The position numbers and the translations under genes are program-made. Positions 32,469-62,579 of a stretch of DNA of 64,000 bases are shown one piece after another (position 1 is the stretch's first letter; every line of letters begins with the position of its first letter). This DNA is from an uncultured Actinomycetes bacterium (GTDB taxonomy: Bacteria; Actinomycetota; Thermoleophilia; RBG-16-64-13), in the NCBI GenBank assembly GCA_963841735.1, contig CAWJDT010000005.1:128001-192000 (forward strand), given 5' to 3'. The notes under the pieces were generated by a model, which had not been told where the DNA came from, ran no database searches, and saw only the letters and a program-made list of their open reading frames with translations.

Positions 32469-32501
32469 ATCCTTCGACCTTGACGAAGAACGTATCCGAG
32501 C

Positions 32502-32533
32502 GAAAGGGGAGACCACGCGTGGTCTCCCCTTTC
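32502..32533 (+). terminator. Perfect 32-bp palindrome; terminator or mRNA-stabilising hairpin
   Basis: GAAAGGGGAGACCACGCGTGGTCTCCCCTTTC after the BMP stop. Confidence 0.7.
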
Positions 32534-32582
32534 TGTTCTACTGATCGTAGACCTAACCCGAAACCGATAGACCCCGAGGCCC

Positions 32583-36196: not shown

Positions 36197-36389
36197 CCTT
36201 GTGAGCGGGCCTGCGGCCGGCTTGGCTTGGCCACATGTACTAGTCTACTTCGGCGAAATCTAGGCCTCTTGGACAAAGCCTGAGCCACCCTGCGTTGCTA
36301 TGCTCAGCCCAAGTTCGTCGGAAGGCCGAGAAGCGTACCGAGCCGGCACACGAGACCAACACCGGCACAGCAGGGGTGATGGGAAGATC

Positions 36390-37709
36390 ATGAGACGGAT
36401 GACCATGTTTTGGGGCTGCACCATCCCCGCCCGTTTCCCCTTCATCGAGAAGGCCACCCGGGTCGCCCTGCAGGACCTGGGCGCGGAGCCGGTCGACCTG
36501 GCCGGGTTCACCTGTTGCCCCGAGGCCACCCTGGTCAGATCGGCCGACGAGGAAGTCTTCTACCTCACCGCCGCCCGCAACCTGGCCCTGGCCGAAGAAC
36601 AGGGTCTTCCGTTGCTGACTCCCTGCAACGGCTGCTATTCCACCTTCAAGACCGTCCTCGCCGACCTCAAGATCGACTGGCGGCTGCGCGACAGGGTCAA
36701 CCAGCATCTGGCCGCGAGCCGGCCTGTCTCTGAGCGGTGACCTCGAGGTCTGGCATCTGGTGGAATGGCTGAGCGAAGACCTGGGACCGGCCGCTATGGT
36801 CAAGAAGATCGACAAAACCGCTGTGGGGCATGCGCTTGGCGGTGCACCACGGCTGCCACCTGCTCCGGCCCAGTCCAGCCGTGCGCTGGGACAGCCCCAC
36901 CGCGCCCACCAAGTTCGAGGCGCTGGTGCGCTCCCTGGGCGCGACGGTGGTGGACTATCCCACCAAGATGGACTGCTGCGGCAACGCCCTCGACCGAGTG
37001 GGCGCGCCGGCAGGATTCGCTGGCCATGCTCGAGCGCAAACTCAGCGACGTCCGAAGCCAGGAGATCGACGCCCTGGTGGTCTCCTGCCCCTCCTGCTTC
37101 CTGCAATTCGACCTGAACCAGGCCGCTCAGACGCCGCGCGACCGGCGGCGACATACCGGTGTTCTACATCACCGAACTCATAGCTCTCGCTCTCGGCCAC
37201 AAGCCCGAGGAACTGGGGCTCGCCCGGCACCGGGTGGAGGTGGCGCCGTTCCTGGAGAAATGGGCGGTCAAGCTGGAGCAACGCAAGGCCCTCGCCGAGA
37301 GCCTTCGATGTTGGTCTACTGCAGACCTGCGCCAGTTGCGGCGCCTGCGACGCCGACTGCCCGGTGGCCCAGACCGACACCGACTTCGTGCCGTCGGCCA
37401 TAGTGGGCGCGCTGCTCGCGGACGGACCTGCAGGCGATGCTTGAGAACCCGGATGTATGGCGCTGCGTGGACTGCATGACCTGCTTCGAGCGCTGCCACA
37501 GCCGCATCGGCATGGCCGAAGTGTTCGAGAAGCTGAAGCGTCTTGCCCAGGCGCGCGGCCTGGAACCGGCCGCCGTCCGCGCCAACTACGAGGCCTTTCT
37601 CGCCAACGGGACGCTGGGGAGCGGCCGCGCGGCCGTGAGAGAGAAACTCGGGCTCCCCCCTCTGCCCGAAGGCGGCACCGAAGACTGGAAGACCGTCCTC
37701 GCCGGCTGA
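36390..37709 (+). CDS. HdrB-like CCG-domain protein fused to a C-terminal HdrC-like 2x[4Fe-4S] domain (frameshifted)
   Basis: FWGC, FTCCP, TPCNGC, HHGCH, DCCG, SCPSCFLQFD; then CASCGACDADCP and CVDCMTCFERC. Confidence 0.8.
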
Positions 37710-37729
37710 GGAGGAGGAGTCGTGAGCGG

Positions 37730-38982
37730 GTGGACCTCATCGCTGCCGGCCCGCGGGCCTCCGCCCGCGGCGGCGACGCGCCGGGGCGGGAGTTCGCTCC
37801 CCGTCCCGCCTACCGCGAGGAGGCCGAGCAGCGCCTGCTGGGCGGCTGCGGGCTCATGGGCGTGTGCGACCAGTCGGGCGCCCGCATGAGCGGTGAGCTG
37901 GCCCTGCGCAGCATGGCCTCCATGCACGACCGGGGCAACGGCCTGGGCGGCGGTTTCGCCGGCTACGGCATCTACCCCGAGTTGCCGCATCTTTACTGCT
38001 TCCATCTGCTCTACAACGACGACGCGGCCAAGGCCGACACCGAGTACTACCTCAAGAAGCATTTCCGGGTGGTCATGGACGAGCCCATCCCCACCAAGCC
38101 CATCCGCGGCATCGAGAACGAGCCCATCCTGTGGCGATACTTCCTGGACATCGCCGAGGAGCGGCTGCTGGAGACCCAGCTCACCGAGGCCGACTACGTG
38201 GTCCACGCGGTCATGGACGTCAACACCCACATCGACGGCGCGTTCGTGGCCTCGTCGGGCAAGAACATGGGCGCCTTCAAGGGGGTCGGCTTTCCCGAAG
38301 AGATCGGGGAATTCTTCCGTATCGACGAGTACAAGGGCTGGACCTGGACCGGCCACGGCCGCTTTCCCGACCAACACCCCCGGCTGGTGGGGCGGTGCCC
38401 ACCCCTTCGCCCTGCTGGACTACTCCATCGTGCACAACGGCGAGATCAGCTCGTACGGCATCAACCAGCGCTACCTGCAGACCTTCGGGTACAAGTGCTC
38501 GCTGCAGACCGACACCGAGGTGGTCACCTATCTGTTCGACCTGATGCTCCGGCGGCACGGACTGCCCGTGGAAATAGCGTGCAAGGCTTTGGCCAGCCCC
38601 TTCTGGAAAGACATCGACCTCATGCCTGAGGAACAGCGCAAGCTGTTCACCGCTCTGCGCATGGTGTACGGCCCGGCCCTGCTCAACGGTCCCTTCGCCG
38701 TGGTGCTGGGCATGGCGGACGGCATGGTGGCCCTCAACGACCGCATCAAACTGCGGCCTTTGGTCGCCGCCAGCCACGGCGACGTGGTCTACGTGGCCAG
38801 CGAAGAATCGGCCATCCGCGAGATCTGCCCGCATCCCGAGAAGAGCTGGATGCCCATGGCCGGCGAGCCGGTCATAGCGCGGGTCAGCGAAAAGGGCCGG
38901 CAGAAGGCGTTGGCCCAGGCCAGACTGGGTGAGGGTCAGCGGCGAGCGGCCCCGGGCACCCGGCCGGCGGGGGTGCTCGTGA
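37730..38982 (+). CDS. Glutamate synthase glutamine-amidotransferase subunit (split GltB1-type), frameshifted
   Basis: [55 protein letters not shown]. Confidence 0.85.
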
Positions 38983-40500
38983 TGGCCAACGCCACTTTCA
39001 TCCCCTCGGAGTTCAGGGTGGTCATCGACAAGGACGCCTGCATCCAGTGCGGCCGCTGCGTCAAGCAGTGCGGCTGGGGCGTCTACACGTGGGACGAGGC
39101 CGAGAAGCGGCCCGTGCCCGACCACAGCAAGTGCTCGGCCTGCCACCGCTGCGTGACCTACTGCCCGGCCGGAGCCATCAGCATCAAGAAGAACGAACTG
39201 GCCTTCAAGCGCTCCGACAGCATGTCGCCGGATCTGATCAAGGCCATCTGGAGGCAGGCCGAGACCGGAGGCGTGCAGCTCACCGGCATGGGCAACGACA
39301 AGCCCTACCTGCGCATCTTCGACCATCTGCTGCTGGACGCCTGCCAAGTGACCAACCCCTCCATCGACCCGCTGCGCGAGCCCATGGAGATGCGGACCTT
39401 CCTGGGCCGCAAACCCGACTTCGTAGAAGTGGCCGCGGGTGGGCCCGGCGGGCCGCGCCTGCTCACCGAACTCGACCGCCAGCTCCAACTCGAGACGCCC
39501 ATCATGTTCGGCGGCATGAGCTACGGCTCCGTGTCGCTCAACGTGCACCGCTCGCTGGCCCTGGCCGCCAAGGAGCTCGGCACCTTCATGAACACCGGCG
39601 AAGGCGGCCTCCATGCCGACCTCGAGCCCTACCAGGACAACATCATCGTGCAGTGCGCCTCCGGCCGCTTCGGAGTGGACTCCAGCTACCTGCAGGCCGG
39701 CGCAGCCGTGGAGATCAAGATAGGCCAGGGCGCCAAGCCCGGCATCGGCGGCCATCTGCCGGGCGAGAAGATCGACTACGAGGTCTCCCTCACCCGGATG
39801 ATCCCGCAGGGCACCGACGCCCTCTCCCCTGCGCCCCATCACGACATCTATTCCATCGAAGACCTGCGGCAGCTCATCTACGCCCTCAAGGAAGCCACCG
39901 GCTACAAGCCCATCTCGGTCAAGATCGCCTGCGTGCACAACATCGCGGCCATCGCCTCTGGGGTGGTGCGGGCCGGCGCCGACATCGTCTATCTCGACGG
40001 ATTCCGGGGCGGCACCGGCGCCGCTCCCACCATCATCCGCGACCACGTGGGCCTGCCCATCGAGATCGGCATAGCCACCGTCGACCAGCGCCTGCGCGAC
40101 GAGGGCATCCGCAACCGGGCTTCGCATCGTCGCGGCCGGCGGCATCCGCAGCTCCGCCGACGTGGTCAAGGCCATCGCCTTGGGCGCCGACGCGTGCGCC
40201 ATCGGCACCGCCGCCCTGGTGGCGCTGGGCTGCCACGTTTGCCAGAAGTGCCACACCGGCGCCTGCTCCTGGGGCATATGCACTCAGCGCCCCGAGCTGA
40301 CCCGCAGGCTCGACCCGGAGTGGGGCGCCTCGCAGCTGGTCAACCTCGTGCACGCCTGGACCCACGAGATCGCGGAGGTCTTGGGCGCTCTGGGTGTCAA
40401 CGCCATCGAGAGCCTGCGCGGCAGCCGCGAGCGGCTCCGCGGCCTGGGCCTGGACAAGACCACCCTGGACATCATGGGCGTGAAGCCCGCCGGACTGTGA
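38982..40500 (+). CDS. Glutamate synthase FMN subunit with N-terminal ferredoxin (archaeal GltB2-type), frameshifted
   Basis: [64 protein letters not shown]. Confidence 0.9.
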
Positions 40501-40513
40501 GAGCGAGCCGGCC

Positions 40514-41410
40514 TTGACCAGCCAGCAAGAGAGAACAGCGGTCCCCAACTCGGCGGTGGTGCGCAACGTGCCCACCGGCCCGGCGCGCAAAGGGCCCACC
40601 GGCATCGAACCGGCGCGCCTCACCGCCGGCCAGCCCGGCACCACGCGCGGCGCGGCCGCACGCAAGGGCAGGCGGTCGGTCATCGACAGCCGCGGGGTCT
40701 ACTACAAGACCTTGAACGAACAGATCCGCGAGGAGATCGAGCGGGGAGCCACCGAGGTGGTGCTCGACAACGTCATCGGCCAACGCTACATCGGCACCGG
40801 ACTGGCCTACCCGGGCGTCACGGTGACCATCAACGGAGTGCCGGGCAACGACCTGGCCGCGTTCATGAACGGCCCCACTCTGGTGGTCAACGAGAACGCT
40901 CAGGACGGAGTGGCCAACACCATGAACTCCGGCCTCGTGGTCATCAACGGCGACGCCGGCGACGTGATCGGCTACGGCATGCGAGGCGGGTCGGTGTACG
41001 TGCGGGGCGATGTGGGCTACCGCGTGGGAATCCATATGAAGGCCTTTGGCGACAGCCATCCCCTCCTCGTGGTGGGAGGCCATGCTCGAGACTTTCTGGG
41101 AGAATACATGGCCGGTGGAGAGATCGTCGTATTGGGCCTGGGCAAGGATGACGGCCCGATAGTGGGCTCCTACGTGGGCACCGGCATGCACGCCGGGGTC
41201 ATGTACATACGAGGAGAAGTGGCGGAGCATCAACTGGGCAAGGAAGTCCGCATGATGGAGCCGTCAGACGCCGACAGCGCCCGCATAGCCGAGATCGTCA
41301 CCGACTACTGCCGGTTGATGGACCTGGACCCGCAGGAGGTCATGCAGGAGCCGTTCGTCAAGATCTATCCCTATTCTTCGCGGCCGTACGGCCGCCTGTA
41401 CGTCTACTAG
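40514..41410 (+). CDS. Glutamate synthase GXGXG subunit (GltB3-type)
   Basis: [38 protein letters not shown]. Confidence 0.88.
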
Positions 41411-41441
41411 AGTGCGCACCCGCACCGGAAAGGAGCAAGGA

Positions 41442-42776
41442 GTGGCAGAGAAGTTGACCAAGGAGGATGTCCTTCGAATCGTGGAGGACAAGCAGATCAA
41501 GTTCGTGCGTTTCTGGTTCACCGACGTTCTGGGAACCCTGAAGAGCTTCGCAGTGACCCCCGCCGAGCTGGAGGGCGCTTTCGACGAGGGCATGGGCTTC
41601 GACGGCTCGTCGATCGAGGGATTTCACCCGCATCGAAGAATCCGACATGATCGCCTACCCCGATCCCAGCACTTTCTCGGTGCTGCCGTGGCGGGCCGGC
41701 GCCGGCGGCGCGGCGCGGATGTTCTGCGAGATCCGCACGCCCGACGGCAACCCCTTCCCCGGCGACCCGCGCAACGTGCTCAAGAAGGTCGTCGCCAGAG
41801 CCGAGGCCCTGGGCTACACCATGTATCGTGGGCCCGGAGCTCGAGTTCTTCTACTTCGAGGACAGCAACGGCACCAAGGTGCTCGACCATGGTGGCTACT
41901 TTGACCTCACCACTCTCGACGCCGGCAGCGACCTGCGCCGCGACACCATCAACGCCCTGCACGCCTTCGGCATCCAGGTCGAGTACTCCCACCACGAAGT
42001 GGCGCCCTCCCAGCACGAGATCGACCTGCGGTACAAAGACGTGCTGACCATGGCCGACAACGTCATGACCTACCGTCTCACCGTCAAGGAGATCGCCGCG
42101 CAGAAGGGCCTGTACGCCACCTTCATGCCCAAGCCCATGTACGGCGTGAACGGCTCGGGCATGCACGTGCACCAGTCGCTGTTCAAGGGCGACCGCAACG
42201 CCTTCTTCGACGCCAGCGACCCGTGCAGCCTGTCCCCGGTGGGCCGCTCCTACATCGCCGGCCTGCTGGCCCACGTCAAAGAGATCGCCCTGGTCACCAA
42301 CCAGTGGGTCAACTCCTACAAGCGCCTGGTGCCGGGCTACGAAGCGCCCGTGTACATCTGCTGGTCGCGCAGAAACCGCTCGGCCATGGTGCGCGTGCCT
42401 CTCTACAAACCGGGCAAGGAGAACGCCACCCGGGTAGAGCTCCGCAACCCCGACCCGGCCTGCAACCCCTATCTGGCCTTCGCCGCCATGCTCGCCGCCG
42501 GACTGGACGGCATCGAGAAGGGCATGGAGCTTCCCGCCGAGCAGGGCGACAACATCTTCGAGATGACCGAGGCCGAGCGCGAACGCGGCCGGCATCGACT
42601 CGCTTCCCGGAGACCTGAACGAGGCCATCAAGGAGTTCGAGAAGTCCAGCTTCGTGCGCGAGGCGCTGGGCGATCACGTCTGCGACTACCTCATCCGCAA
42701 CAAGGTGGCTGAGTGGAACGAGTACAAGATGCTCATCACCCCGTACGAGCTCGAACGCTATCTGCCCAACCTCTAG
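41442..42776 (+). CDS. glnA: Glutamine synthetase type I (frameshifted)
   Basis: FDGSSIEG, GPELEFF, HHEVAPSQHEI, FMPKP...NGSGMH, NSYKRLVPGYEAP, RVELRNPD. Confidence 0.93.
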
Positions 42777-42879
42777 ACAACGATCCCTCCTGTCCGCCCG
42801 GCGGTCTCCGACCGCCGGGCGGCTTCTCTGTGCCGCAAGTCTGGTGCCTTGCCCGCCGCGCGTTCTTTGGAGGAGTCCT

Positions 42880-43391
42880 TTGGTAGAGACCCTGCCCGTG
42901 ACCGGCGCCCGAGCCGTCACGGCTTTTATATGCGCCAACTGTTCGCGACCCTGGCCGGCCAGTCTGACCCCACCGGCTTGGCGCCTGCCGCAGCCGCCGC
43001 TGTTCGAGTGGCCCGTTCCGGTGCGCGAAGTCCTGGTGCCTGCACCGGACGGCTACAGCCCGAGCACGTGCTCAAGGCGTTCGAGTCGGGCGCCGACCTG
43101 GTGCTCACCGTGTCGTGCGAGCAGGCTGACTGCCGGTACCTCCAGGGCAGCGAGCGCTGGAGCCGCCGCGCGGACTACGTGAGGGCCATCCTCGACGAGA
43201 TCGGGCTGGGCGGCAACCGCCTGATGCACTTCCAGCTGACGGGCGCGACAGGGGCAGACGCCGTCCGCGACGCGGTGCTGCTGGCCCTTGAGGGGCTAGC
43301 CCCCAATCCTTTGCACCGCGAGCTCCCGGTCGATGCAGCCGAGGAGGCCTACCAACAAGTGGAAACGAGCGAGGAAGAGAATGAAGACTGA
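42880..43391 (+). CDS. MvhD/FlpD-like [2Fe-2S] protein, divergent (frameshifted)
   Basis: FICANC, PCTGRL, AFESGAD, C...CRYLQG, IGLGGNRL. Confidence 0.75.
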
Positions 43392-44238
43392 CCTTGGCCA
43401 GGCCCTCAGCTCCGGGCGGCTGCTGCTCACCGCCGAGTGCGTGCCGCCGCGCAGCGGCGGCGCAGAGGCCGTCCGCGCCCTCTCGGCCGCGCTGGCCGCC
43501 GAACCTTGACGCCGTAGTGGTGGCGGACAATCCGGACGAGATCCACGGTTCGGCGCTGGCGTGCGCCGCTCTGCTGGCCCGAGAAGGGCCGCGAGGTCAT
43601 ATTGACCATGGCCACGCGCGACCGCAACCGGATCGCTCTGGAAAGCGACGCCCTGGGCGCCTCCACCTTGGGTGTCAAGGGCATTCTCTGCCTCAGCGGC
43701 CAGCACCAGTCGCTGGGTGTATGCCCCCAGGCCGCGGGCGCCAACGACATCGATTCCTTGCAGCTCACTCAGGCCCTGAAGGGGCTCGAGACTCCCGAAC
43801 CTGCTGCTGGCAGCGGTGGCCCACCCCTATCTGCGACCCCTCGAACTGAACCTGATCAGGCTCAAGAAGAAGATCGCCGCCGGCGCGGACCTCCTGTTCA
43901 CCCAGCCGGTGTTCGACTTCGACGCCTTCGCCTCCTGGATGGACGCCGTGCGGGCCGCCGGGCTCGAGGGCCGGGCCGCCATCATAGCGAGCGTGCTCCC
44001 CCTCACCAGCGTGGAGCAGGCCGAGTTGCTCCGGCAGCGGCAGACCTACGGACCTCTGGACGAAGCCGTGATCGCCCGCCTGAACGAAGCCTCCGACGCC
44101 GCCAAGGAAGGACTGGCCATAGCGGCCGAGATCGCCGGCCGGCTCAAGACGGTCCCCGGCGTCCGCGGCATCCATATCCTGTGTGGCGGCGCCGAAGCCC
44201 TCTCGGGCCAGGTCGTCCAGGCGGCGGGACTGGCGTAG
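43381..44238 (+). CDS. metF: Methylenetetrahydrofolate reductase (frameshifted)
   Basis: TAECVPP, DNP, RDRNRIAL, LCLSG, KKIAAGAD..FTQPVFD, GIHI. Confidence 0.82.
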
Positions 44239-44249
44239 GTGAGCATGTC

Positions 44250-45693
44250 GTGCCCGACCGCTATCACATCCACACCGCCGCCACGGCTCCCCGATTCCAC
44301 CGGGTGGGCAAGTTCGGCAACGTCGACTGGCGCGAGGACTGCTCGCGCTGCACCAACTGCGTCAAGCTCCGCTGCCTCTACGACGTCTACAAGCACGAGG
44401 CCGCGTACAACCGCGACCCGCTCGTCTCGGTCGACACGCTCAACGAATGCAAGTCCTGCCTGTCGTGCGTCCAGGGCTGCACCAAAGGCCTGCTGAGCGT
44501 CTCGGTCAACCCCGAGTATCCTCGCCATGGGCGACGAATACTGGAAGCCCGACATCCTGCTCACCACCTGGAACCAGGCCGACAACGGCAAGAGTCCCCG
44601 TCTCGGGCGCCGGCTACCGCGGGCGCTTCCACGGCCCGGGCTTCGACTCCATCTGGACCGACATGTCGGAGATCGTCCGCCCCACCCGCGACGGCATCCA
44701 CGGACGCGAATACATCTCCACCTCGGTGGACATCGGCACCAAGCCTATGCGTCTGCAGCTTCGCCGCCGACGGCAGTCTGCTCACTCCGCCTTCGCGCCT
44801 TGTGGAGCTGCAGCTCCCGGCCGTCCTGGACATGCCGGGCTGGCCCGTGGAGAGTCGCGACCTCTGGCCGCGGCCCGGGCAGAGGCGGCCGCGCAGCTGA
44901 AGACCCTGGCGGTGATGACGGCCGCCGAGGCCTCCCTGGTGCCGGCCGAGCTACTCGCGTCGGTGCGTGCCCCTGGTCAGCGAAACCGAAGCCGAGAGCC
45001 ACGGGCAGCTGCTCGACCAAGTGCGTCATGGCCCAGATCGCCGATCGCCGGCCACGGCCGGCCGGGCGACCTTGCCCGCAAGTTGCAGGCACGCCCACCC
45101 GCGGTTGCTGGTCGCCGTCCGCATGGAACTCCGCCCCAACAGTGCCGACCGCATCATCGAACTGAGCCGGCAGGGCATCGGGGTCTTCCAGTTGTGCGCC
45201 GACCTGCACGGGCGCGAGCGCCTGGAGAACGGCAGGCGCCGGCCGGCACATCAAGGACGCTATGCGCGAAGTCCACGGCCGGCTGGTCACGGCGGGCCTG
45301 CGCGACGAGGTGACGTCTGATCGTCTCCGGCGGCATCGCGCTGGCCGAGCACATGGCCAAGGCCATCATCTGCGGGGCCGACCTCGTGGCGGTGGACACA
45401 CCGCTCCTGGTCGCCCTGGGCTGCCGCGTCTGCGGTGGCGGCGGCGACTGCGACTCGGGCACGCGACTGCCCGGTGGACATCGGTTCGGCTCGATGCCGA
45501 CTACGCCGTCCACAGGATGGTGAATCTGATGGGCGCGTGGCACAGCCAGCTCATCGAGGTGCTCGGGGCTATGGGCATCCGCGAAGTCCGCCGCCTGCGG
45601 GGCGAAGTGGGACGAGCCATCTTCATGGAAGACATCGAGAAGGAGGCCTTCGGCGATCTCGCCCACGTGCCTCAGACTGAGGTGCACGCATGA
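44250..45693 (+). CDS. Divergent glutamate-synthase FMN-subunit-like protein with ferredoxin (frameshifted)
   Basis: CSRCTNC, CKSCLSCVQGC, GFDSIWTDMSEIVRPTRDGIHGREYIS, SGGIA..EHMAKAIICGAD, MGIREVRRLRGE. Confidence 0.75.
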
Positions 45694-47342: not shown

Positions 47343-47347
47343 GCGTC

Positions 47348-49972
47348 GTGAGCGATCTTCGCCGAACGCCTACTGGCCGCCCGCTCGCAGGTCTACACCG
47401 GCCCGAGACCGGCCGGCTCCGACCCTGTCGAGGAGGGCGGCTGCGGAGTCACCGGCTTCGCCTGCACCGTGCCGGTGAAGGGGCGCCACATCTACGAGCC
47501 CTCCAAGCAGATGCAGAACCGCGGCAACGGCAAGGGCGGCGGCATCGCCGCCGCGGGCCTGGTGCCCGAGCAGCTGGGCATCTCCGCCGACATGCTCGAG
47601 AGCCACTACCTGCTGCAGATCGCCCTGCTCGACCCCGACTGCCACGCCGAGTTGGAGCGGCAGTTCGTGCTGCCCCACTTCGACGTCGCCCTGTCCACCC
47701 GGCAGCCCCACATCGACGACTATCGCGACATCGGGCCTGGAGGTCCGGCCGCCCGACGTGCACCGCTACGTGGTGCGCGCCAAACCGAGCGCCCTCAAGG
47801 CCTTCGCCGAAGCGGCCGGGCTGCAGGACCTGGAGCCGCGCGCGCTCGAAGACGAGTTCGTGTGGCGCAACTCGTACGCAGCTCAACGACGCCTACTACG
47901 CCTCGCTCGGCGAGAAACGCGCCTTCGTGCTGTCGCACTCGCGCAACCTGCTCATCTTCAAGACTGGTGGGCTACGCCGAGCAGAACGTGGAGTACTACC
48001 AGCTGCAGGACTTCAGCGCCCACGTGTGGATCGCCCATCAGCGCTATCCGACCAAGGGCCGCGTGTGGCACCCGGGTGGCGCCCACCCCTTCGTGGGCAT
48101 GAACGAGGCCCTGGTGCACAACGGCGACTTCGCCAACTACCACTCGGTCAGCGAGTACCTGCGCCAGCGCAACATCCGGCAGCAGTTCCTCACCGACACC
48201 GAGGTCTCGGTGCAGCTCTTCGACCTGTGGGACCGTGTCTATCGACTATCCGCTGGAGTACATCATCGAGGCGCTGGCCCCCACCACCGAGCTGGACTTC
48301 GACCAGTTGCCGCCCGAGAAGCAGGCCATCTACCGAGAGATCCAGGCCACCCACATCCACGCCTCGCCCGACGGGCCCTGGTTCTTCATCATCGCCCGCA
48401 GCCAGGGCGACCGCTTCCAGCTCATGGGCATCACCGACACGGCCATGCTGCGGCCGCAGGTCTTCGCGCTCTCCGACAGCGGCGAGGTCCAGATCGGCCT
48501 CATCTGCTCCGAGAAGCAGGCCATCGACGCGACCCTGCGCAGCCTCGCCGAGGAAGACCCGCGCTTCTGCCCGGTGGCCGACAAGTACTGGAACGCGCGC
48601 GGCGGCTCGTCCACCGACGGGGGCGCCTTCATCTTCACCGTGGCGCCGGAATGGTGACGCCGGCCAGCATGCGGCTCTCCTGCACCGACAAGTTCGGCCG
48701 CGAGGTCACCTGCAGCGCCGGCTCGGTGCGCTGCGACCTGCCCGCTCGATGTCAACGACTCGTCGGACGCGGCTGCCCCGTCGAGCTCTTCAGCGCCGAC
48801 GAGGTGCAGGAGAAGCTCCGCAGAGGCGACCTCGACGCCCTCTTCGCCTCGGTGCGAGACATCGGCTCCTGGCCGGCCGACCAGCTGCGCCGCTTCTGCC
48901 AGTACGTGCTGGCCGCGGCCGACGACCCCAAGACGTGCCTGTCGGCCATCGATCCTGCTCACCGATCTGCACGACCGCCGCTTCGCGACCGGCGACAAGC
49001 GGCGCGCGACCGTGGTCCGCGTCCTCGAAGACGCCCTCGACCAGTTGTTCGACACCGCTCCGCTCTTCGGCGAGCCGGGCAATCGCTTCTGGCGACGGAT
49101 CAACTGGGACACCCGCGATCGTCTGCAGGCCCCGCAGGCCGGCGAAGAGCTGCTCTGCATCGACAGCCAGGGCTTCCCGCCCGAAGGCGACGACTGCGAC
49201 GCGGTGCTCATGCGCGAGGCCTACAAGCTGGGCTGGAAGCACTTCTGCGTCTATCGCCTGCGCGGCCAGCGCTTCCATGGCGTGGGTCTGGGCGCGGCCA
49301 CCGACGGCGTGCGCATCGACCTCTACGGCTCCAACGGCGACTACACCGCCAGCGGCATGGACGGCCTCGAGATGCACATCCACGGCAACGCCCAGGACCA
49401 GGTGGCTCAGATCGCCAAGCGCGGCAAGCTGGTCATCTACGGCGACGTCGGGCAGACCTTCATGTACGGCGCCAAGGGCGGTGAGGTCTTCATCCTGGGC
49501 AACGGGGCGGGCCGGCCGCTCATCAACGCGGTGGGACGGCCGCGGGTGGTCATCAACGGCACCTGTCTGGACTTCCTGGCGGAGTCGTTCATGGCCGGCG
49601 ACCCCCTGAACGGCGGCGGCTTCGTGATCCTGAACGGCGTCGAGTTCGACGACGACGGCGAGCATCGTCCCCCAGGCGACTCCCTACCCGGGCAGCAACC
49701 TGTTCTCGCTGGCCAGCGGCGGCGCCATCTACATCCGCGACCCTCACAACAAGGTGGTCGAGCGGCAGCTCAACGGCGGGGTGTTCTCGCCCCTGGACGA
49801 CAAGGACTGGCGCCTCATCCGCGGCTACCTGGAAGAGAACGAGCGTCTCTTCGGCATCAAAGTGCAGGACCTCCTGACGGTGGATGGCCAGGTCCGGGCC
49901 CCGCAGGATGTCTATCGCAAGGTCAGCGCGGTCACGCTGTCGGTGCTGGCCGGATCGGAGAAGAAGAAATGA
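47348..49972 (+). CDS. Fused glutamine-amidotransferase plus GXGXG glutamate-synthase subunit (frameshifted)
   Basis: EEGGCGV, NRGNGKGGG, HQRYPT, AHPF, HNGDFANY, then GQRFHGVG, GDVGQTFMYGAKGG, DFLAESFMAG. Confidence 0.82.
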
Positions 49973-49978
49973 CCCCCG

Positions 49979-50538
49979 GTGACCATAGAGATCAACACCA
50001 TCGGCGGGAGCCTGGCCGACGAGCTCAAGGCGCTGACCGGCGTCTCCCCCATGAGCTGCTACCAGTGCACCAAGTGCTCCAGCGGCTGCCCCGTGGCCGG
50101 CCGCGGCGATCTGCGGTCGCACGAGCTGGTGCGGCTGGTGCAGATGGACCAGCGCGAGGCGGTACTCTCCAGCCGCTTCATCTGGGAGTGCACCTCTTGC
50201 CATACCTGCGTCACCCGCTGCCCGCAGAAGGTGGACATCTGCGCCATGAACGACGCGCTCCGCGCTCTCAGCGTCAAAGAGGGACTGGCGACGCCGAGCA
50301 CGGCCGTGCCGGTGTTCAACGACGCGTTCCTGGCGAGCGTCCGCAAGCGCGGGCGCGTGCACGAGTTGGGCCTGATGGCGGCCTTCAAGCTGCGTACCCG
50401 GCGCTTCTTCGAAGACGTCGACAAGGCCCCCATGATGCTGTCCAAGGGCAAGCTGTCGCTGTTCGGCGACCGGGTCGCTGGGCGCAGCGAGCGCGAGAAG
50501 CTCTTCAGCCGGGCGAGCAAAGGCGGTGCGAGCGATGA
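49979..50538 (+). CDS. hdrC: Heterodisulfide reductase subunit C-like
   Basis: [12 protein letters not shown] and [14 protein letters not shown]. Confidence 0.85.
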
Positions 50539-51420
50539 AATACACGTTCTACCCTGGCTGTTCGCTGGAAGGCACCGCCAAGGACTTCCACAGTCTCAAC
50601 GCTGGCGGTGGCGGCCGGGCTGGGGCTCGAGCTGGCCGAGATGCAGGACTGGATCTGCTGCGGCTCCACTGCCGCCCACAACAGCAATCCACTCCTGGCC
50701 GACGCCCTGCCGGCGCAGAACCTGCGCGCGGCCGAGGGCCAACCGGTCGCGGTGGCCTGTGCCGCCTGCTACAGCCGCCTCAAGATGGCCAACCACCACA
50801 TCGCCGGCCGACGACAACCGTGCGCGCCAAGGTCGCCGAAGTGGTGGGCGGCGACTACGACGGACTCACCCCGGTGCGGCACCTGCTGGAGATCCTGGGC
50901 CAGGACATGGCGCGAGAAGACATCGCCGCGAAGATCCGCCAGCCCCTGACCGGGCTCAAGGTGGCCTGCTACTACGGCTGCCTGCTGTCGCGTCCGCCGG
51001 AGATAACGCAGTTCGACGACGCCGAGAACCCCACTCTCATGGACAAGCTCCTGGAGACGGCCGGGGCCACCCCCGTCGACTGGCCGCACAAGACCGAGTG
51101 CTGCGGCGCCAGCTTCTCCATCACCGATGCGAGCATCGTGCTCGAGCTGAGCGACAAGATCCTCGCTATGGCGCAGGCCGCCGGCGTGGACTGCATCGCC
51201 ACCGCCTGCCCGCTCTGCCAGCTCAACCTGGACATGAGGCAAAAGGACATCGAGACCAAGTACGGGCGCCGCTACGGCCTGCCCGTGTTCTACTTCACGC
51301 AACTGCTGGGCCTGGCCCTGGGCTGTTCGCCGAGCGAGGTGTCGCTCGACAGCCTGATAGTCGATCCACGAGAGTTGCTCCGATCCAAAGGATCTGCTCG
51401 TGAACGAGGCGGGACGATGA
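50535..51420 (+). CDS. hdrB: Heterodisulfide reductase subunit B-like (frameshifted)
   Basis: [35 protein letters not shown]. Confidence 0.88.
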
Positions 51421-54400
51421 GCACTAGCAACGGTAACAACGGAAACGGAAACGGCGACCCCGTGGCCCCGGTCGCCACCCCGGAAGCCCTCGGCGCCGCG
51501 CCTGAGGCTGTGGGCGCTGCGCCTGAGGCTGTGGGCGCTGTCCTGGTCTGCGGCGCCGGCATCACCGGCATCCAGGCTTCGCTCGACCTGGCCGAGAGTG
51601 GCTTCAAGGTCTACTTGGTGGACTCCTCGCCCGCTATCGGCGGCAGGATGGCCCAACTCGACAAGACCTTCCCCACCGGCGACTGCGCCATGTGCATCAT
51701 CTCGCCCAAGCTGGTCGAGGTGCGCCCGCAACAAGAACATCGAGATCATCACGCTGGCCGACATCCAAGGCATCTCGGGTGAGCCGGGCAACTTCAAGGT
51801 GAAGCTGCGCCAGAACCCGCGCTACATCGACCTGGCCAAGTGCAACGCCTGCGGCGACTGCAACCTGGCCTGCCCGGTGGACCTGCCCAGCGAGTTCGAC
51901 CGCAACCTGGGTACGCGCAAGGCGGTGTTCCGCCCCTACCCACAGGCCATTCCCAACGTGTTCGGCATCTCCAAGGCCGAGGGCAAGGCGCCCTGCAAGG
52001 CCGCCTGCCCCGCCGGCGTGAATGCCCAGGGCTACGTGGCCCTCATCGGCGCCTCGCAAGTTCAAGGAAGCCTACGAGCTGGTGCGCGAGCGTTGCCCTC
52101 TCCCCTCTGCGTGCGGGCGCGTCTGCCAGCATCCCTGTGAGGACGAGTGCAACCGTAGCGACATCGACCAGCCGGTGTCCATCCGTGATCTCAAGCGGTT
52201 TGCCGGCGACTACGTCATGAACAACCCCGAGGGCTGTCCCCCGGTCGCGACCCTCGTCGCCAAACTTGATAGCAAGGTCGCCGTTATCGGTGGTGGCCCC
52301 GCCGGTCTGACCGCGGCCTACGATCTGGCCCAACTGGGCTACGGAGTGACCTTGTTCGAGGCCCAGCCGCATCTGGGCGGCATGCTGCGCTACGGCATCC
52401 CCGGCTATCGCCTGCCCAAGGACGTCCTTGAGCGGGAGATCCAGTCGATCCTCGACCTGGGCATCGAAGCCAAGACGGGCACCAAGGTGTCCGATCCCAA
52501 GAGCCTGCTCGACTCGGGGTTCAAAGCCGTGTTCGCGGCCCCAGGCGCGTGGATCGGCCGCAAGCTGGGCGTGCCCGGCGAAGAAGCCTCGGGCGTGCGG
52601 ACGGGTCTGGAGTTTCTCCGCCAAGTGAACAGCGGCGAGACGCCCGCTCTCGGCGCGAAGGTGTTGGTCATCGGCGGCGGCGACGTCGCCATGGACGCGG
52701 CCCGCTGCGCTCTGCGCATGCCCGGCGTCAACTCGGTGCACCTGGCCTGCCTGGAGAGCCGCGCAGAGATGCCGGCCCACTCCTGGGAAGCGGCCGAGGC
52801 GCTTGAGGAAGGCGTGGTGTTCCACAACAGCCTCGGCCCGACGAGCATCGAGACCGGCGGCGACAAGGTCACGGGCGTAGCCTTCAGAGCCTGCACCAGC
52901 GTGTTCAACGACGAGGGCAAGTTCGCTCCCCAGTTCGACGATGCCAAGACGGAGCTTCTGCCCGCCGACACGGTCATCGTGACCATCGGCCAAGGCATCG
53001 ACGCCGCCGGACTCGGCGTAGCCACCGGCCCCGGCGGGCGCATCACAGCCGACAAAGACACCCTTGCCACCGACGTCGCCCGGCGTGTTCGCCGGCGGCG
53101 ATGCCGTGCTGGGCCCGGCCTCCATGGTCGACGCCATGGCCCAGGGCCACAAGGCCGCTGAGGCCATCGACGCGTACATACGAGGCGTCAAGCTGCCCCA
53201 GTCCCCGGCTTCGGCCGAGGCAGAAGCGGAGACTGGCCAAGAACCCCCGGCCCGACGCTCCCCGCGCGGACCGCGTCAAGATGCCCCAGACCGAAGCGGC
53301 CACGCGGGTGGCCGGCTTCGTCGAGATCGACCAGGGCTACAGCGTCGAACAAGCCGTGGCCGAAGCCCAGCGCTGCCTGGACTGTGGTCTTTGCAGCGAG
53401 TGCATGCAATGCGTCAAGGCCTGCACCGCCGGCGCCGTCTGCCACGACCAGCTGTCCAGAAGAGATCGAGATCGCCGCCGGTAGCGTGATCCTCACCCCC
53501 GGTTTCGAGGAGTTCCAGCCGGCTCTCCGTGGCGAGTTCGGCCACGGTCGCTACGCCAACGTGCTTTCGAGCGTCCAGTTCGAGCGCATGCTCTCGGCTG
53601 CGGGTCCCACCGGCGGCCACGTGGAGCGGCCTTCGGACGGCGGCGAGGTCAGAACGCGTCGGCTTCATCCAGTGCGTGGGCAGTCGTGATACCGCCCGCG
53701 GCAACGGCTACTGCTCGTCCATCTGCTGCATGAGCGCCACCAAAGAGGCGATGATCGCCATCGAACACGCTCACGGCCAGCACGACGTCGACGCCACCAT
53801 CTTCTGCATGGATGTCCGCGCGTTCGGCAAGGAGTTCGACGCCTACGTCAACCGGGCCCGCGACGAGAACGGTGTGAAGTACATCCGGGCGATTCCCTCC
53901 CGCGTGGTCGAGATGCCCGGCAGCAAGAACCCGCGAGTGCGCTACTTCGACCAGGACGGCGTCGAGCAGCAACCAGGAGTTCGACCTAGTGGTTCTGAGC
54001 GTGGGCATGCAGGTTCCGGCCAGCGTGCGCGAGACGGCCGGCAAGCTAGGCGTCGATCTAAACGAGTTCGGCTTCGCCCAGACCGAGCGGCTGGCCCCAC
54101 TGGCCACCACCAAGCCCGGCCTGTATGTGGCCGGAGCCTTCCAGGAACCCAAGGACATCCCCGAGTCGGTGGCCCAGGCCTCCGCGGCCGCGGCGTGCGC
54201 CATGGACCAGTTGGCCGAGGCGCGTGGAAATCTCATAACGCGCCGCGAGTACCCGTGGGAGCGTGACACCACCGACGAACCGCCCCGGGTAGGCGTGTTC
54301 ATCTGCCACTGCGGACAGAACATCGCCTCGGTCATCGATGTGAAGCACGTGGCCCAAGAGGCCACCAAGCTGCCCAACGTCTTCCATGCCGAAGCGAGTC

Positions 54401-55972
54401 TCTACACCTGCTCCGACACCACCCAGCAGCACATCAAGGACATGATCAAGGAGCACCGGCTCAACCGGCTGGTGGTGGCCTCCTGCACACCGCGCACACA
54501 CGAGGTCCTCTTCCAGGAGACGCTGCGCGACAGCGGACTCAACCAATACCTGTTCTCTATGGCCAACATCCGCGACCAGGGGTCATGGGTGCACAAGAAC
54601 GAACCCGTGGCGGCCACCGAGAAGGCCATAGACCTCATGGCCATGGCGGTAGCGCGCGCCCGGCACCTCAAGGCCCTGCAGACCGGCCAACTGCCGGTGA
54701 CGGCTTCGGCGCTCGTGTTGGGCGGCGGGCTGGCCGGCATGACGGCGGCGCTCGGCATCGCCGACCAGGGCTTCCAAGTGCACCTGGTCGAGAAGGAACC
54801 GGTGCTTGGCGGCCTCATGAGCCAGATCCACAGCACCCTGGAGGGCACCGACGTAGAGTCGTTCCGCGCCGCACTGGTGGACAAGGTGCAGACCCATCCG
54901 CTGGTGGACGTCTACCTGAACACCACCCTTGCCCGCATCACCGGGCACATCGGCCACTTCGAGAGCGTGCTTGACGGTGGAGGGGAGTGAGCAGCCGGTG
55001 CACCACGGAGTCATCATCGTGGCCACGGGCGGCCAGGAACGCACCACCGAGCTCTACCTGCACGGCAAGAACCCGCACGTCACCACCCAGAGCAAACTCG
55101 AGGCGCAACTGGCCGCCGGTGAGCTTCCAGCCGAGCTGCAGGGCAGGACCGACCCCACCGTGGTGATGATCCAGTGCGTCGAGAGCCGCAACGACGAGCA
55201 TCCCTACTGCAGCCGGGTGTGCTGCTCGGAGGCGGTCAAGAACGCGCTCGACATCAAGCGCAGGCTCCCCGGCGCCAACGTGGCGGTGCTGGGCCGGGAC
55301 ATCCGCACCTATGGTTTCCGCGAGCTCTTCTTCCAGCAGGCTCGGGAAGAGGGGATCATGTTCGTCCGCTACCCGGAGAAGAACGACCCTGTAGTGGCCG
55401 AGCAAGACGGCCGGCTCCAGGTGACTGTGCACGACGCCTCCAGCAACCGTGACCTGGTGCTGCGGCCCGACTTGCTGGTGCTCTCCACCGGCATCGCCCC
55501 GGCTACGAACAACCCGGTACTGTCTGGCCAACTGCGCAGCGCCCTTACGTCCGACGGCTTCTTCCTAGAGGCGCATCCCAAGCTCCGCCCGGTCGACCTG
55601 GCCAACGAGGGCGAGTACATCTGCGGGCTCTCCCACTCCCCCCGCTTCATGGACGAGACCATCGCCCAGGCCATGGCGGCGGTGGGCCGCGCCACTACGG
55701 TGCTCTCCAAAACACATCTGGAGATCCCCGGCCAGGTGGCCCAGGTGGACCCAACAGACTGCGTGGCCTGCGCCACCTGTGTGAAGACCTGCCCCTACGG
55801 AGCCCCCATGATCAACGAACTGGGCAAGGCTGAGATCCAAGTAGCCCTGTGCATGGGTTGCGGCAGCTGTGCCGCGTCCTGCCCGGCCCGCACCATCACC
55901 CTGCTTCATCAAGAAGACCAGGCGTTGGTGGCCATGCTGGACGAACTGCTGGTGGAAGGAGCGAGGCTATGA
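51417..55972 (+). CDS. hdrA: Large HdrA/HdrL-type flavoprotein with an inserted GltD-like NAD(P)H-binding module (frameshifted, ~1500 aa)
   Basis: [26 protein letters not shown]; [40 protein letters not shown] insert; [20 protein letters not shown]; second GGGLAG and QCVESR; C-terminal ferredoxin. Confidence 0.88.
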
Positions 55973-56481
55973 CCCAGGCCACCACCCCAATGACGCCCTC
56001 GGAGACAACGGAGGCCACCACGGCGGCGACGCCCGCGGCGGCCGCTTGGGAGCCCCAGATCATCGCGTTCTGCTGCAACTACTGCGCCTATGCGGCGGCC
56101 GACCTGGCCGGATCAAAGCGTATGCAATACCCGGCCAACGTGCGGATCATCCACGCGCCCTGCACCGGCAAGATCGAGATGGAGCACATTCTTGACGCCT
56201 TCCTAAAGGGTATCGATGGCATCCTGGTGGCCGGTTGCCTGGAAGGTGGGTGTCACTTCATGGAGGGCAACCTCCGGGCGCGCAAGCGCACCGACCGCAT
56301 CCGCGAGATGTTGGCCGAGGTAGGCGTCGGCGAGGAGAGGCTCAAGATGGTCAACCTGTCGGCCGCCGAGGCTCCCACCTTTGTGAGGAGCGTACAGGAG
56401 ATGGTGAACACGGTCAGAGCGTTGGGACCGAGCCCTCTCAGGAGCTCGAACGAGTCTCAGACGTTGGAAAGCGAAGGTTAA
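55969..56481 (+). CDS. mvhD: MvhD/FlpD [2Fe-2S] subunit
   Basis: FCCNYCAYAAADLAG, PCTGK, GCLEGGCHF..GN. Confidence 0.9.
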   Translation: MTQATTPMTPSETTEATTAATPAAAAWEPQIIAFCCNYCAYAAADLAGSKRMQYPANVRIIHAPCTGKIEMEHILDAFLKGIDGILVAGCLEGGCHFMEGNLRARKRTDRIREMLAEVGVGEERLKMVNLSAAEAPTFVRSVQEMVNTVRALGPSPLRSSNESQTLESEG

Positions 56482-56483
56482 GA

Positions 56484-57152
56484 ATGATTGTTGCTTCTCC
56501 CAAATCGATCACCGAGCTGAGGAACCTCATCTCGGGCCACAAGCGCGTGCTCTTCGCCGGCTGTGGCACTTGTGTCACAGTCTGCCTGGCCGGTGGCGAG
56601 CGTGAGGTGGGATTAGCCTCATACGCCATCCGCATGGCGCGCAAACTCGAAGGAGAGCCACTCGAACTCACCCAGATGACCATCGAGCGCCAGTGCGAGA
56701 ACGAGTTCATCAAAGACCTGGCCGAAGCGGCCGCCAAAGTCGACGCCATCGTCTCGTTCGGGTGCGGTGTGGGCGTGCAGGCCGTGGCCGAGAGCTTCCC
56801 CGAGAAGCCGGTCTATGCCGCCCTCAACACTCAGTTCATGGGCACTCTCGAGGAGCAGGCCGTCTGGGCCGAGAAGTGCCTGGGCTGCGGCGATTGCATG
56901 TTGGCGCAGTTCGGCGGGGTCTGCCCGGTGACGCGCTGCGCCAAGCGGCTCTTGAACGGTCCCTGCGGTGGTTCCACCGAGGACCATTGTGAAGTGGACG
57001 AAGACCGTCCCTGCGCCTGGCAGCTCATCTACACGCGCCTCAAGAACATCGAGCAGTTGGACCGGCTTGATGAGGTCGTTCCCGCCAAGGATTGGAGCAC
57101 CTCCTGGCACTCCGGAGCGCGCAAAGTGGTACGCAAAGAACACCGGGTGTAG
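56484..57152 (+). CDS. metV: MetV (MTHFR-associated Cys-rich subunit)
   Basis: GCGTCVTVC, RQCE, CLGCGDC...CPVTRCAKRLLNGPCGG..CEV...CAW. Confidence 0.88.
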   Translation: MIVASPKSITELRNLISGHKRVLFAGCGTCVTVCLAGGEREVGLASYAIRMARKLEGEPLELTQMTIERQCENEFIKDLAEAAAKVDAIVSFGCGVGVQAVAESFPEKPVYAALNTQFMGTLEEQAVWAEKCLGCGDCMLAQFGGVCPVTRCAKRLLNGPCGGSTEDHCEVDEDRPCAWQLIYTRLKNIEQLDRLDEVVPAKDWSTSWHSGARKVVRKEHRV

Positions 57153-60747: not shown

Positions 60748-61089
60748 CTAGGCCAGGGCCGACACTCCCGTCTCACCCGTGCGGATGCGCAGGCATTCTT
60801 CCATCTCCAGCACGAAGATCTTGCCGTCGCCAATGTTGCCTGTGTGCGCCCCCCGGGTGATGGCGTCAACCGCGTGCCATACATTGGAGTTGCTCACGGC
60901 CACTTCCACCTTGATCTTGTGAAGCAGTCCGCCCCTCTCCACATGACTCCGATAAACCTCAGCTATGCCCTTCTGCCTGCCCCTGCCCATCACCTCCGAG
61001 ACAGTAACCAGGTTGATCTCTTCCGACTCGAGAGCGGCCATGACCTCATCCAACTTGTCGGGCTGGATGATGGCGATGATGTATTTCAT
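60748..61089 (-). CDS. glnK: P-II nitrogen regulatory protein
   Basis: GRGRQKG, TGNIGDGKIFV, RIRTGE; directly downstream of amtB. Confidence 0.9.
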   Translation of the reverse strand: MKYIIAIIQPDKLDEVMAALESEEINLVTVSEVMGRGRQKGIAEVYRSHVERGGLLHKIKVEVAVSNSNVWHAVDAITRGAHTGNIGDGKIFVLEMEECLRIRTGETGVSALA

Positions 61090-62360: not shown

Positions 62361-62579
62361 GTCCACCCTCCTAGGCCGGATCTGCTGTTCGCCCGCATGC
62401 GCCCGGGGCAACAAATCCGGTGGCCATGCGTGTTCTCAATTACAGCGGAGGGAGCCTAGAAAGGAAACCGCCTAACGTACAAGGATTGGCGCGTTTCGTT
62501 GTACCTTTGGAGCCAGCGCCGTACTATTGCGCCGCCCAGCGCGTTCTGGGCGACCGGGACGACCGGGGCGCCGCTGCGC

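Follow-up and report, generated by a model that had tools for sequence, protein, structure and literature searches.

Two putative nitrogen-assimilation units in an uncultured Actinomycetota genome, one of them joining a split glutamate synthase-like core to HdrL, MvhD and MetF/MetV

The DNA analyzed here, referred to as the window, is a 64,000-nt stretch of contig CAWJDT010000005.1 (positions 128,001 to 192,000, forward strand; assembly GCA_963841735.1) from an uncultured Actinomycetota bacterium. Between 36.3 and 57.2 kb, it carries genes for glutamate synthase (GltS)-like subunits, glutamine synthetase, Hdr-type proteins, MvhD, MetF and MetV, and the region is best read as two nitrogen-assimilation units of a genome that bears the Wood-Ljungdahl pathway. 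Unit 1 (hdrBC-gltB1-gltB2-gltB3-glnA) occupies 36.3–42.8 kb, and unit 2 (mvhD'-metF-gltB2'-gltB2-gltB1/3-hdrC-hdrB-hdrL-mvhD-metV) occupies 42.9–57.2 kb. Since the G+C content of the window is 58–70% (2-kb windows), long open reading frames (ORFs) occur in every frame, and genes were called from Pfam matches on 40 stop-free pieces together with tblastn searches in which uninterrupted orthologues from two congeneric genomes (G009 and G011) served as queries. A codon-position GC model placed the coding on the + strand throughout 36.2–57.2 kb, with the frame shifting every few hundred bases without stop codons. The window covered 84–100% of each G009 and G011 protein in 33 tblastn pieces, and all 15 genes named by a first-pass annotation of this DNA were recovered on the + strand in the order it had given. 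Three of them (gltB3, the second mvhD and metV) are uninterrupted, and the remaining 12 are frameshifted; Pfam and NCBIfam models were also scored on the G009/G011 orthologues. The many overlapping start and stop codons reported earlier cannot be read in the frameshifted copy, but intact orthologues do have 4-nt overlaps at most junctions.

The intact order of unit 1 in G011 is an HdrB+HdrC fusion (463 aa), GltB1 (405 aa), Fer4+GltB2 (507 aa), GltB3 and type I GlnA. The hdrBC-like fusion of the window (36300..37709), with two CCG domains followed by an HdrC-type 4Fe-4S domain, is frameshifted: CCG matches lie on three frame pieces next to Fer4_9, the G011 query aligned in three tblastn pieces, and a CCG domain is cut at about 37005. 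Its G011 orthologue scored under the cut-offs of both TIGR03288 (233.6 bits) and TIGR03290 (55.8 bits). The class-II glutamine amidotransferase subunit gltB1 (37778..38981; GATase_6/7) is in two frame pieces, which cover residues 6–405 at 76–84% identity, and GltB1 of G011 has the motif GGCG after a leader. Next comes gltB2 (38982..40500), encoding two [4Fe-4S] ferredoxin motifs and the FMN/synthase domain, whose PF01645 match is divided by a frameshift near 40125 into model positions 7–277 in one frame and 276–369 in another (tblastn identity 88–96%). The GXGXG beta-helix subunit gltB3 (40514..41410; PF01493, 116.7 bits) is uninterrupted. The unit closes with glnA (41442..42776), whose Gln-synt_N and Gln-synt_C matches are spread over four frame pieces; GlnA of G011 exceeded the cut-off of the type I model TIGR00653 (519.9 against 429.15 bits).

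With GltB1, Fer4+GltB2 and GltB3 as separate polypeptides beside glnA, unit 1 corresponds to the archaeal-type split GltS, for which the available text of PMC8097209 describes separate ORFs for the GltS domains in Archaea, and it differs by the HdrB+HdrC-like fusion gene in front. Judged from its domains and family scores, it is an ordinary archaeal-type split GltS with an HdrBC-like iron-sulfur subunit and a type I glutamine synthetase. A sample of the phylum was surveyed through GltB1, a query with the HdrBC-like protein having reached only two close relatives: this GltB1 type was found in 42 of 201 genomes, and among 30 loci an HdrBC-like gene stood in front in seven and glnA was present in five.

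Unit 2 starts with the mvhD-like (FlpD) gene mvhD' (42880..43391; PF02662, 64.6 bits), frameshifted and aligned in two tblastn pieces, and with a metF-like gene (43384..44238) represented by four frame pieces and a match to the C-terminal half of PF02219. The core follows: gltB2' (44250..45693), a divergent paralogue of the FMN/synthase subunit recovered by tblastn through many frameshifts; gltB2 (45812..47342), with Fer4 and PF01645 in two frames; and the gltB1/3 fusion of glutaminase and GXGXG domains (47358..49972; GATase_6, GXGXG, tblastn), in three frame pieces. Downstream are hdrC (49976..50540; Fer4_8/Fer4_17, 80% tblastn identity), which has lost its own stop codon in the window copy; hdrB (50535..51400), with two CCG domains in two frames and insertions private to the window at 50594 and 50813; hdrL (51513..55972), with FAD_oxidored, Fer4, Fer4_20 and Pyr_redox_2 matches and tblastn alignments over six frame pieces; the uninterrupted mvhD (55849..56481), which matches PF02662 over its full length (164.1 bits) and MvhD chains in the PDB at E 4e-41; and the uninterrupted metV (DUF5981; 56484..57152, the last position being that of its stop codon), 89% identical to MetV of G009. 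The latter protein scored 123.6 bits with PF12225, and a search of the MetV sequence against the PDB gave no match at E ≤ 1. The intact operon of G009 has the same order: MvhD-like, MetF-like (286 aa), GltB2' (479 aa), Fer4+GltB2 (564 aa), GATase+GXGXG fusion (895 aa), HdrC, HdrB, HdrL (about 1500 aa), MvhD and MetV. In comparison with the archaeal-type split enzyme, unit 2 has a fused GltB1-GltB3 and the additional paralogue GltB2'.

The 15 genes had first been described as a single system of about 21 kb, a view that gives way to two separable units. A terminator-like hairpin (42794..42822, + strand) with a 13-bp stem, 12 pairs of which are G-C, lies 18 nt 3' of the glnA stop codon; no other terminator-like site in the 20 kb scanned is as strong, and in G010 it recurs after glnA (locus L013, 9950–9981). 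Moreover, the units occur apart in relatives. No unit 1 gene was present in the 3.2 kb upstream of mvhD' in G012, nor any unit 2 gene in the 4 kb after glnA in G011. Unit 2 of G010 is preceded by glnA; 5 kb further upstream, only a GltB2-like match was present. In G009 (L009, 18120–18521), a PIN-domain gene and a further gene of 308 aa are located upstream of mvhD', at the position of the window's glnA.

When unit 2 was compared with its counterparts in six relatives, 33 insertions proved private to the window, none of them a multiple of three in length, along with six deletions of the same kind; +1 events make up 30 of the 34 window-private insertions listed for this unit. The corresponding insertions plus deletions in the relatives number 3+2 (G009), 4+6 (G010), 10+3 (G012), 8+0 (L016), 8+0 (L017) and 1+2 (L019). 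Unit 1 of the window has 10–11 private +1 insertions and three such deletions, compared with none in G011, a count in which the non-collinear slice of G010 was left out. Overall, the window thus holds about 43 private frame-breaking insertions, nearly all of a single base. The tblastn pieces contain eight stop codons, seven of them flanked on both sides by mapped indels and the last one (36738) close to a frame change at 36719; since all eight sit in out-of-frame stretches, there is no in-frame nonsense mutation. Frame changes without stop codons were counted 296 times in the genome, 196 of them in 33 of 176 bins of 16 kb; they are present on every larger contig, their number per bin correlates with G+C content (Spearman 0.49), and they also break fhs, amtB and serA. 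Among the candidate causes, homopolymer slippage was rejected on finding 16 inspected sites outside long homopolymers, as was selenocysteine insertion or other recoding, the breaks being frame changes rather than in-frame TGA codons.

We are, therefore, rather confident that the frameshifts are consensus errors of the assembly and not mutations of the organism: the spectrum is almost purely +1, comes without other signs of decay, is spread over essential genes and resembles a poor long-read consensus. It also fits this reading that short-read contigs of relatives, from four public runs, are one letter shorter at seven frameshift sites (41621, 44594, 46430, 47015, 49661, 51719 and 53651). The opposite explanation, a decaying pseudogene array with real frameshifts, has in its favor that the bin holding the cluster is the genome maximum, with 16 stop-less frame changes against a median of one, and that a partial second copy of mvhD'-metF-gltB2' exists on another contig, C2. 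Against an artefact also stand the facts that the short-read contigs are those of relatives, so that a sequencing error and a true strain mutation look alike, and that the exact sequence was found in no public run (at best 0.09 of the sampled words were shared, and no RNA run was among the matches). The loci L016 and L017, from related long-read-style metagenome-assembled genomes (MAGs), with eight private insertions each, fit an artefact without proving it; their lesions are of the kind seen in the window, though less frequent, and hint at a shared technical cause. Decay is, however, improbable in view of lesions confined almost entirely to +1 insertions, of pieces that retain 63–96% amino acid identity to their orthologues (44–61% in a few short or indel-dense ones) with very high G+C at third codon positions, of the same damage in fhs, amtB and serA and at hot spots on every larger contig, and of the fact that, to the queries used, the cluster genes give the only strong glutamate-synthase matches in the genome besides the fragmentary C2 copy. 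Because the frameshifts are most likely consensus errors, the window genes are presumably functional in the organism. The locus is poorly served by its assembly, and its annotation as pseudogenes would be unwarranted without a check of the reads.

Unit 2 is not a peculiarity of this genome. Its gene order recurs in loci labeled as at least nine bacterial phyla and is, thus, more than chance. At least 570 relatives of the GltB1/3 fusion protein were found in species-representative genomes and at least 7646 clusters (90% identity) at E ≤ 1e-50, and these clusters carry in their source only labels such as "glutamate synthase domain-containing protein 1/3" or similar. The bacterial records are labeled Actinomycetota, Acidobacteriota, Myxococcota, Desulfobacterota-type "delta" bacteria, Chloroflexota, Planctomycetota, Nitrospirota, Latescibacterota, Spirochaetota, Bacteroidota and Lentisphaerales, and the archaeal ones Bathyarchaeia, Heimdallarchaeota and Methanocellales. 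The arrangement was counted in 138 loci. MvhD-MetV-MetF-GltB2'-GltB2-GltB1/3 was the order in 50 of them; 32 had the arrangement of the window, MvhD'-MetF followed by the core and Hdr genes (18 with all ten genes, six without HdrBC); in six, MetV-MetF came after the core; and another six had MvhD and the core with neither MetF nor MetV seen. In the loci L055, L153, L158, L160, L180 and L161, the order is (GlnA-)MvhD-GltB2'-GltB2-GltB1/3, with no MetF, MetV or Hdr gene within the fetched flanks. Bathyarchaeia and Heimdallarchaeota loci (L170–L172) have the core alone, and a Methanocellales locus (L178) has the core with GltB3-like and GlnA-like matches. It follows from this census that GltB2'-GltB2-GltB1/3 is the invariant core, that MvhD is nearly constant and that MetVF and Hdr are exchangeable additions. 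In five loci (L049, L050, L074, L077 and L088, from MAGs with Planctomycetota, Chloroflexi and "delta" labels), GltB2' and GltB2 are fused in ORFs of about 2900–2980 nt (about 980 codons), which suggests that the two paralogues work as one unit.

The association of a split glutamate synthase-like enzyme with MvhD, MetF/MetV and Hdr, earlier proposed as a candidate undescribed system, accordingly holds up as conserved and apparently undescribed. A description of the unit 2 operon was not found in the full-text literature searched (subscription-only papers and supplements lay outside it), including the accessible parts of PMC2702500, PMC5736913, PMC9012536, PMC7325909 and PMC8097209. On the evidence of its domains and distribution, unit 2 appears to be a real, widespread and uncharacterized glutamate synthase variant. 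It counts against so firm a view that the family is known from sequence alone, all 141 locus titles being those of MAGs, with no cultured host of the operon among them.

For the reaction itself, the best reading of the conserved residues is that the unit 2 core would act as a glutamine-dependent glutamate synthase (glutamine + 2-oxoglutarate + 2 e- → 2 glutamate). In all 78 loci aligned at this position, the glutaminase cysteine (CGV(T/V)GF) is preceded by a conserved EEGG and a leader of 30–47 residues. Because the residue before the cysteine is glycine and never a start codon, the propeptide must be removed to expose the cysteine. Bacterial GltB also matures by the removal of a propeptide. 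An alignment of GltB1/3 to GlmS and PurF showed that the arginine, Asn-Gly and aspartate of the glutamine site are kept (AHxR, HNG and TDTE, compared with GlmS), and the fusion protein matched the GXGXG family PF01493 with 46 bits (cut-off 32.5). The GltB2 orthologue scored 298 bits with PF01645 and aligned to residues 857–1169 of the Azospirillum GltS alpha subunit (2VDC), with the AQGAKPG motif and the three cysteines of the [3Fe-4S] cluster kept and extra Cys beside them. Both GltB2-type subunits carry ferredoxin-type cluster motifs, and this points to a net electron input.

GltB2' is the least familiar part of the core. In the family consensus, it has two invariant N-terminal CxxCxxCxxxC ferredoxin-type motifs and a C-terminal cluster motif of its own; its profile aligned to residues 974–1160, in the FMN-domain half of GltS alpha, and its predicted model is a generic FMN-type TIM barrel. 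It may serve as a substitute for the tunnel and central domain, as an electron relay or as a second site. Two observations speak against a canonical enzyme: GltB2' is an FMN-domain paralogue that has no AQGAKPG substrate motif, and none of the unit 2 subunits matched the GltS central domain PF04898 at the cut-off, GltB2 remaining sub-threshold (20.5 against 22.8 bits). The core might then use other substrates, either another 2-oxo acid or amide donor or a second active site in GltB2', a proposal to which this conserved FMN-barrel iron-sulfur protein with its own invariant motif block lends some weight, as does the failure of any of the five scanned proteins (MetF, GltB2', GltB2, GltB1/3 and MetV) to reach an NCBIfam equivalog cut-off. 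We regard such substrates as rather unlikely in view of the 2-oxoglutarate-site motif and cluster cysteines that GltB2 shares with the solved GltS, the retained glutaminase residues, the linkage of glutamine synthetase, AmtB and P-II genes to the core, and the two of five complete genomes in which unit 2 is the sole GOGAT (glutamate synthase)-like system.

One of the closest known systems is the bacterial NADPH-dependent enzyme GltBD of Azospirillum brasilense (PDB 1EA0, 2VDC and 6S6S). It shares with unit 2 the Ntn glutaminase after a propeptide, the GXGXG beta-helix, the FMN/synthase domain with AQGAKPG and three cluster cysteines, and a GltD-type NAD(P)H module, which in unit 2 lies inside HdrL. 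In contrast to GltBD, the unit 2 domains are split and permuted (GltB2', GltB2 and the GltB1+3 fusion), PF04898 is not detected, the GltB2-type subunits have extra ferredoxin-type motifs, an HdrA-type protein houses the GltD-like module, and MvhD, HdrBC and MetF/MetV come as additional components. The absence of a stand-alone gltD, claimed by the first-pass annotation, is true of the window only: five separate GltD-like stretches were found elsewhere in the genome by tblastn, apart from the GltD-like domain in HdrL.

The product of hdrL is an HdrA-type protein of about 1500 aa with an inserted Fer4_20+Pyr_redox_2 region, that is, a GltD/NfnB-like NAD(P)H module. In the orthologue, Fer4_20 spans 278–355 and Pyr_redox_2 374–664, a second FAD domain begins at 1190, and a Fer4 domain lies at the C-terminus (numbering of the scanned 1610-aa ORF, which starts upstream of the ~1500-aa orthologue). 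With mvhD directly downstream, the window gene corresponds to HdrL as an HdrA/GltD-like fusion: the available part of the published description likewise pairs a large HdrA-like protein, which contains a GltD-like pyridine-nucleotide module, with an mvhD gene directly after it. In the genome described there, HdrL stands beside other partners, such as dsr genes at HdrL1, and the accessible text mentions no link to a glutamate-synthase large subunit.

Substrates, electron path, direction and any bifurcation are here deduced from domain content. Electrons from NAD(P)H would enter at the GltD-like module within HdrL, pass on through the HdrA-type flavin and iron-sulfur clusters, HdrBC and the [2Fe-2S] adaptors MvhD, and from MvhD reach the ferredoxin-like domains of GltB2'/GltB2 and then the FMN. 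Meanwhile, GltB1/3 would free ammonia from glutamine for addition to 2-oxoglutarate, and the resulting 2-iminoglutarate would be reduced at the FMN. Taken as a whole, the explanation that we hold with moderate confidence comprises two units, a unit 2 GltS fed by NAD(P)H via HdrL/MvhD, a MetF that is a probable relic, and frameshifts that are an artefact.

A more ambitious form of this mechanism is conceivable and can be advanced only tentatively: the Hdr-type operon would be an electron-bifurcating glutamate synthase, in which NAD(P)H is oxidized at HdrL, the reduction of 2-iminoglutarate pays for the reduction of ferredoxin at the HdrA flavin, and MetF is a fossil of an ancestor fed by MetVF. 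The reduction of 2-iminoglutarate, together with glutamine hydrolysis, would form the strongly exergonic high-potential branch, and operons without Hdr might still draw electrons from methyl-tetrahydrofolate (methyl-THF). The acceptor couple of glutamate synthase is much more positive than NAD(P)H, and bifurcation with ferredoxin reduction is, for that reason, thermodynamically possible. If true, ammonium assimilation would yield low-potential reducing power, and soil, wetland and sediment anaerobes would conserve energy through nitrogen assimilation.

An important question is whether MetF and MetV bring folate into the reaction, as was first proposed for this locus. The two proteins, together with Hdr and MvhD, recall the MetFV-HdrCBA-MvhD complex of Moorella thermoacetica, the source study of which is reportedly Mock et al. 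2014. That methylene-THF reductase, as described in the available portions of PMC5736913 and PMC7325909, shares six protein families in one operon with unit 2 (MetF, MetV, HdrC, HdrB, HdrA-type and MvhD). Unlike in Moorella, three glutamate-synthase genes stand between metF and hdrC, metV is not adjacent to metF, HdrA is HdrL, the catalytic triad of MetF is eroded, and both a canonical MetV-MetF and an HdrCBA-MvhD are encoded separately in the genome. The triad columns were mapped from Glu28, Asp120 and Gln183 of E. coli MetF (MG1655 gene), with which a profile alignment of human MTHFR agrees. At these positions, the window protein has E-Q-Q (motifs TAEC, LSGQHQS and FTQP), with glutamine in place of Asp120, and its nearest relatives have E-N-Q. 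The E/D/Q triad is intact in all 55 MetF sequences adjacent to MetV. By comparison, only seven of the 30 MetF sequences of Hdr-type operons retain it, and 23 have at least one residue substituted, in 12 variant triads with N, A, T, L, F, Y or R at the Asp position, A or G at Glu, and D, S, N or R at Gln. In E. coli MetF, according to the accessible text of PMC11094777, Asp120Asn has 0.3% of kcat and a Km more than 40-fold higher, Glu28Gln has 0.01% activity, and changes of Gln183 raise the Km more than 250-fold.

The MetF-like subunit of this lineage is, by its residues, probably not a working methylene-THF reductase but a non-catalytic relic or a structural subunit: its triad is eroded, comparable mutants are nearly dead in E. 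coli, and a canonical MetV-MetF with the triad E-D-Q is encoded beside fhs elsewhere in the genome. That the subunit has been kept points to a structural or electron-relay function; MetV is kept in the operon as well, with metV 12 kb from metF. The coupling of glutamate synthesis or oxidation to methyl-/methylene-THF, through a catalytic folate site of MetF/MetV linked to GltS via Hdr, would be consistent with the presence of both proteins beside the core in most loci, with the fully kept triad of the MetV-adjacent sequences and with the Wood-Ljungdahl markers CdhC and FTHFS of the host. The erosion in the Hdr-type operons, the separate canonical enzyme and the loci in which MvhD and the core occur with no MetF or MetV seen nevertheless make such coupling unlikely in this lineage. 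What speaks against a relic more generally is that MetF is kept in most operons and its triad in all those of the MetV-MetF type, for which a folate-linked reaction is possible. The contrast between eroded MetF in Hdr-type and intact MetF in MetV-MetF-type operons is a testable prediction of which forms touch folate.

The observed linkage supports an association of unit 2 with nitrogen assimilation, although the counts are indicative only, as related genomes are not independent. Sixteen of the 138 loci had a GlnA match. Nine of these matches came from the first 80 loci, and six of the nine share 61–66% identity with type I GlnA: four sit immediately upstream of the core (61–65%) and two at 3 and 8 kb downstream. 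AmtB lay within about 10 kb in 13 of these 80 loci and GlnK in 12. A strict sigma-54-type motif was present upstream in eight of 61 loci. Two of five complete or near-complete genomes had no strong PF01645 match outside unit 2. As noted earlier, amtB and glnK are also near in the window, 3.6 kb downstream on the - strand: glnK at 60748..61089 (P-II) and amtB at 61124..62414 (Ammonium_transp, in two frame pieces). This support has weak points, in that the GlnA matches are confined to those 16 loci, three of the nine checked are just 36–40% identical to type I GlnA, and three of the five complete genomes carry another Glu_synthase gene, so that another role for unit 2, or a conditional one, is conceivable.

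GltB-like proteins beside a glutamine synthetase relative may also belong to methylamine metabolism, and an anaerobic N-methylglutamate route, in which the GltB-like subunits are MgsABC and GlnA is GmaS, had been suggested as the alternative. The likeness is real as far as the available text of PMC6237917 goes: in Methylobacterium extorquens DM4, MgsA, MgsB and MgsC are GltB1-, GltB3- and GltB2-type subunits working with the glutamine synthetase-like ligase GmaS, which is assigned there to the type III glutamate-ammonia ligase family. Those subunits are, however, of 300, 225 and 442 aa without electron carriers, in contrast to the ferredoxin domains, MvhD and Hdr of the window, where dedicated carriers are in the operon and the motifs of both GltB2-type subunits point to electron input. 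The GlnA of the window is of type I, not type III: its G011 orthologue, which passed TIGR00653, reached only 322.4 bits with the type III/GmaS-type model TIGR03105 (cut-off 469.6), and the core-adjacent GlnA of the four distant loci is of the type I kind. Furthermore, no sarcosine-oxidase-like Mgd match was seen in the 50 Pfam-scanned window pieces, the rest of the genome being unsearched for it. The N-methylglutamate route is, thus, very improbable, and an ammonium-assimilating glutamate synthase is retained as the preferred reading of unit 2.

Nitrogen enters biomass mainly through glutamate synthase, and there is still no settled electron donor for the split "archaeal-type" enzymes. Unit 2 would present one GltS core wired to interchangeable electron inputs, namely MvhD alone, MetVF, or HdrL with or without HdrBC. 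What the window adds is the occurrence of unit 2 beside an ordinary split glutamine synthetase-glutamate synthase unit, the loss of MetF triad residues in operons of the Hdr type and a caution as to the state of the assembly.

Several further observations concern the rest of the source genome. The second copy of mvhD'-metF-gltB2', partial and frameshifted, lies at the end of the 9.4-kb contig C2 (115–2263), with 47–71% amino acid identity to the G009 proteins; its DNA is 72–76% identical to that of the window copy, and it may represent either a paralogue or contamination from a related population. On contig C1, a Wood-Ljungdahl stretch (1423251–1428025) has fhs in three frame pieces about 2 kb from the E-D-Q-type MetV-MetF, and CdhC is encoded at 1317009–1317470. 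The same contig carries the separate HdrCBA-MvhD set (445148–449278) and a second full-length HdrL-like gene (1144477–1149038).

Within the window, GAF-PAS and PAS-HisKA-HATPase-receiver pieces directly 3' of metV (57325–60698) probably belong to a single large hybrid sensor kinase that a frameshift near 58620 has split; a PucR-type regulator is encoded after amtB on the - strand (62580–63947). Upstream of unit 1, at 29263–36196, serA and a PnrA/Bmp-type ABC transporter (binding protein, ATPase and BPD_transp_2 permease) were found with many frame changes, the serA product having its 2-hydroxyacid dehydrogenase domains and the PGDH intervening domain in two frames.

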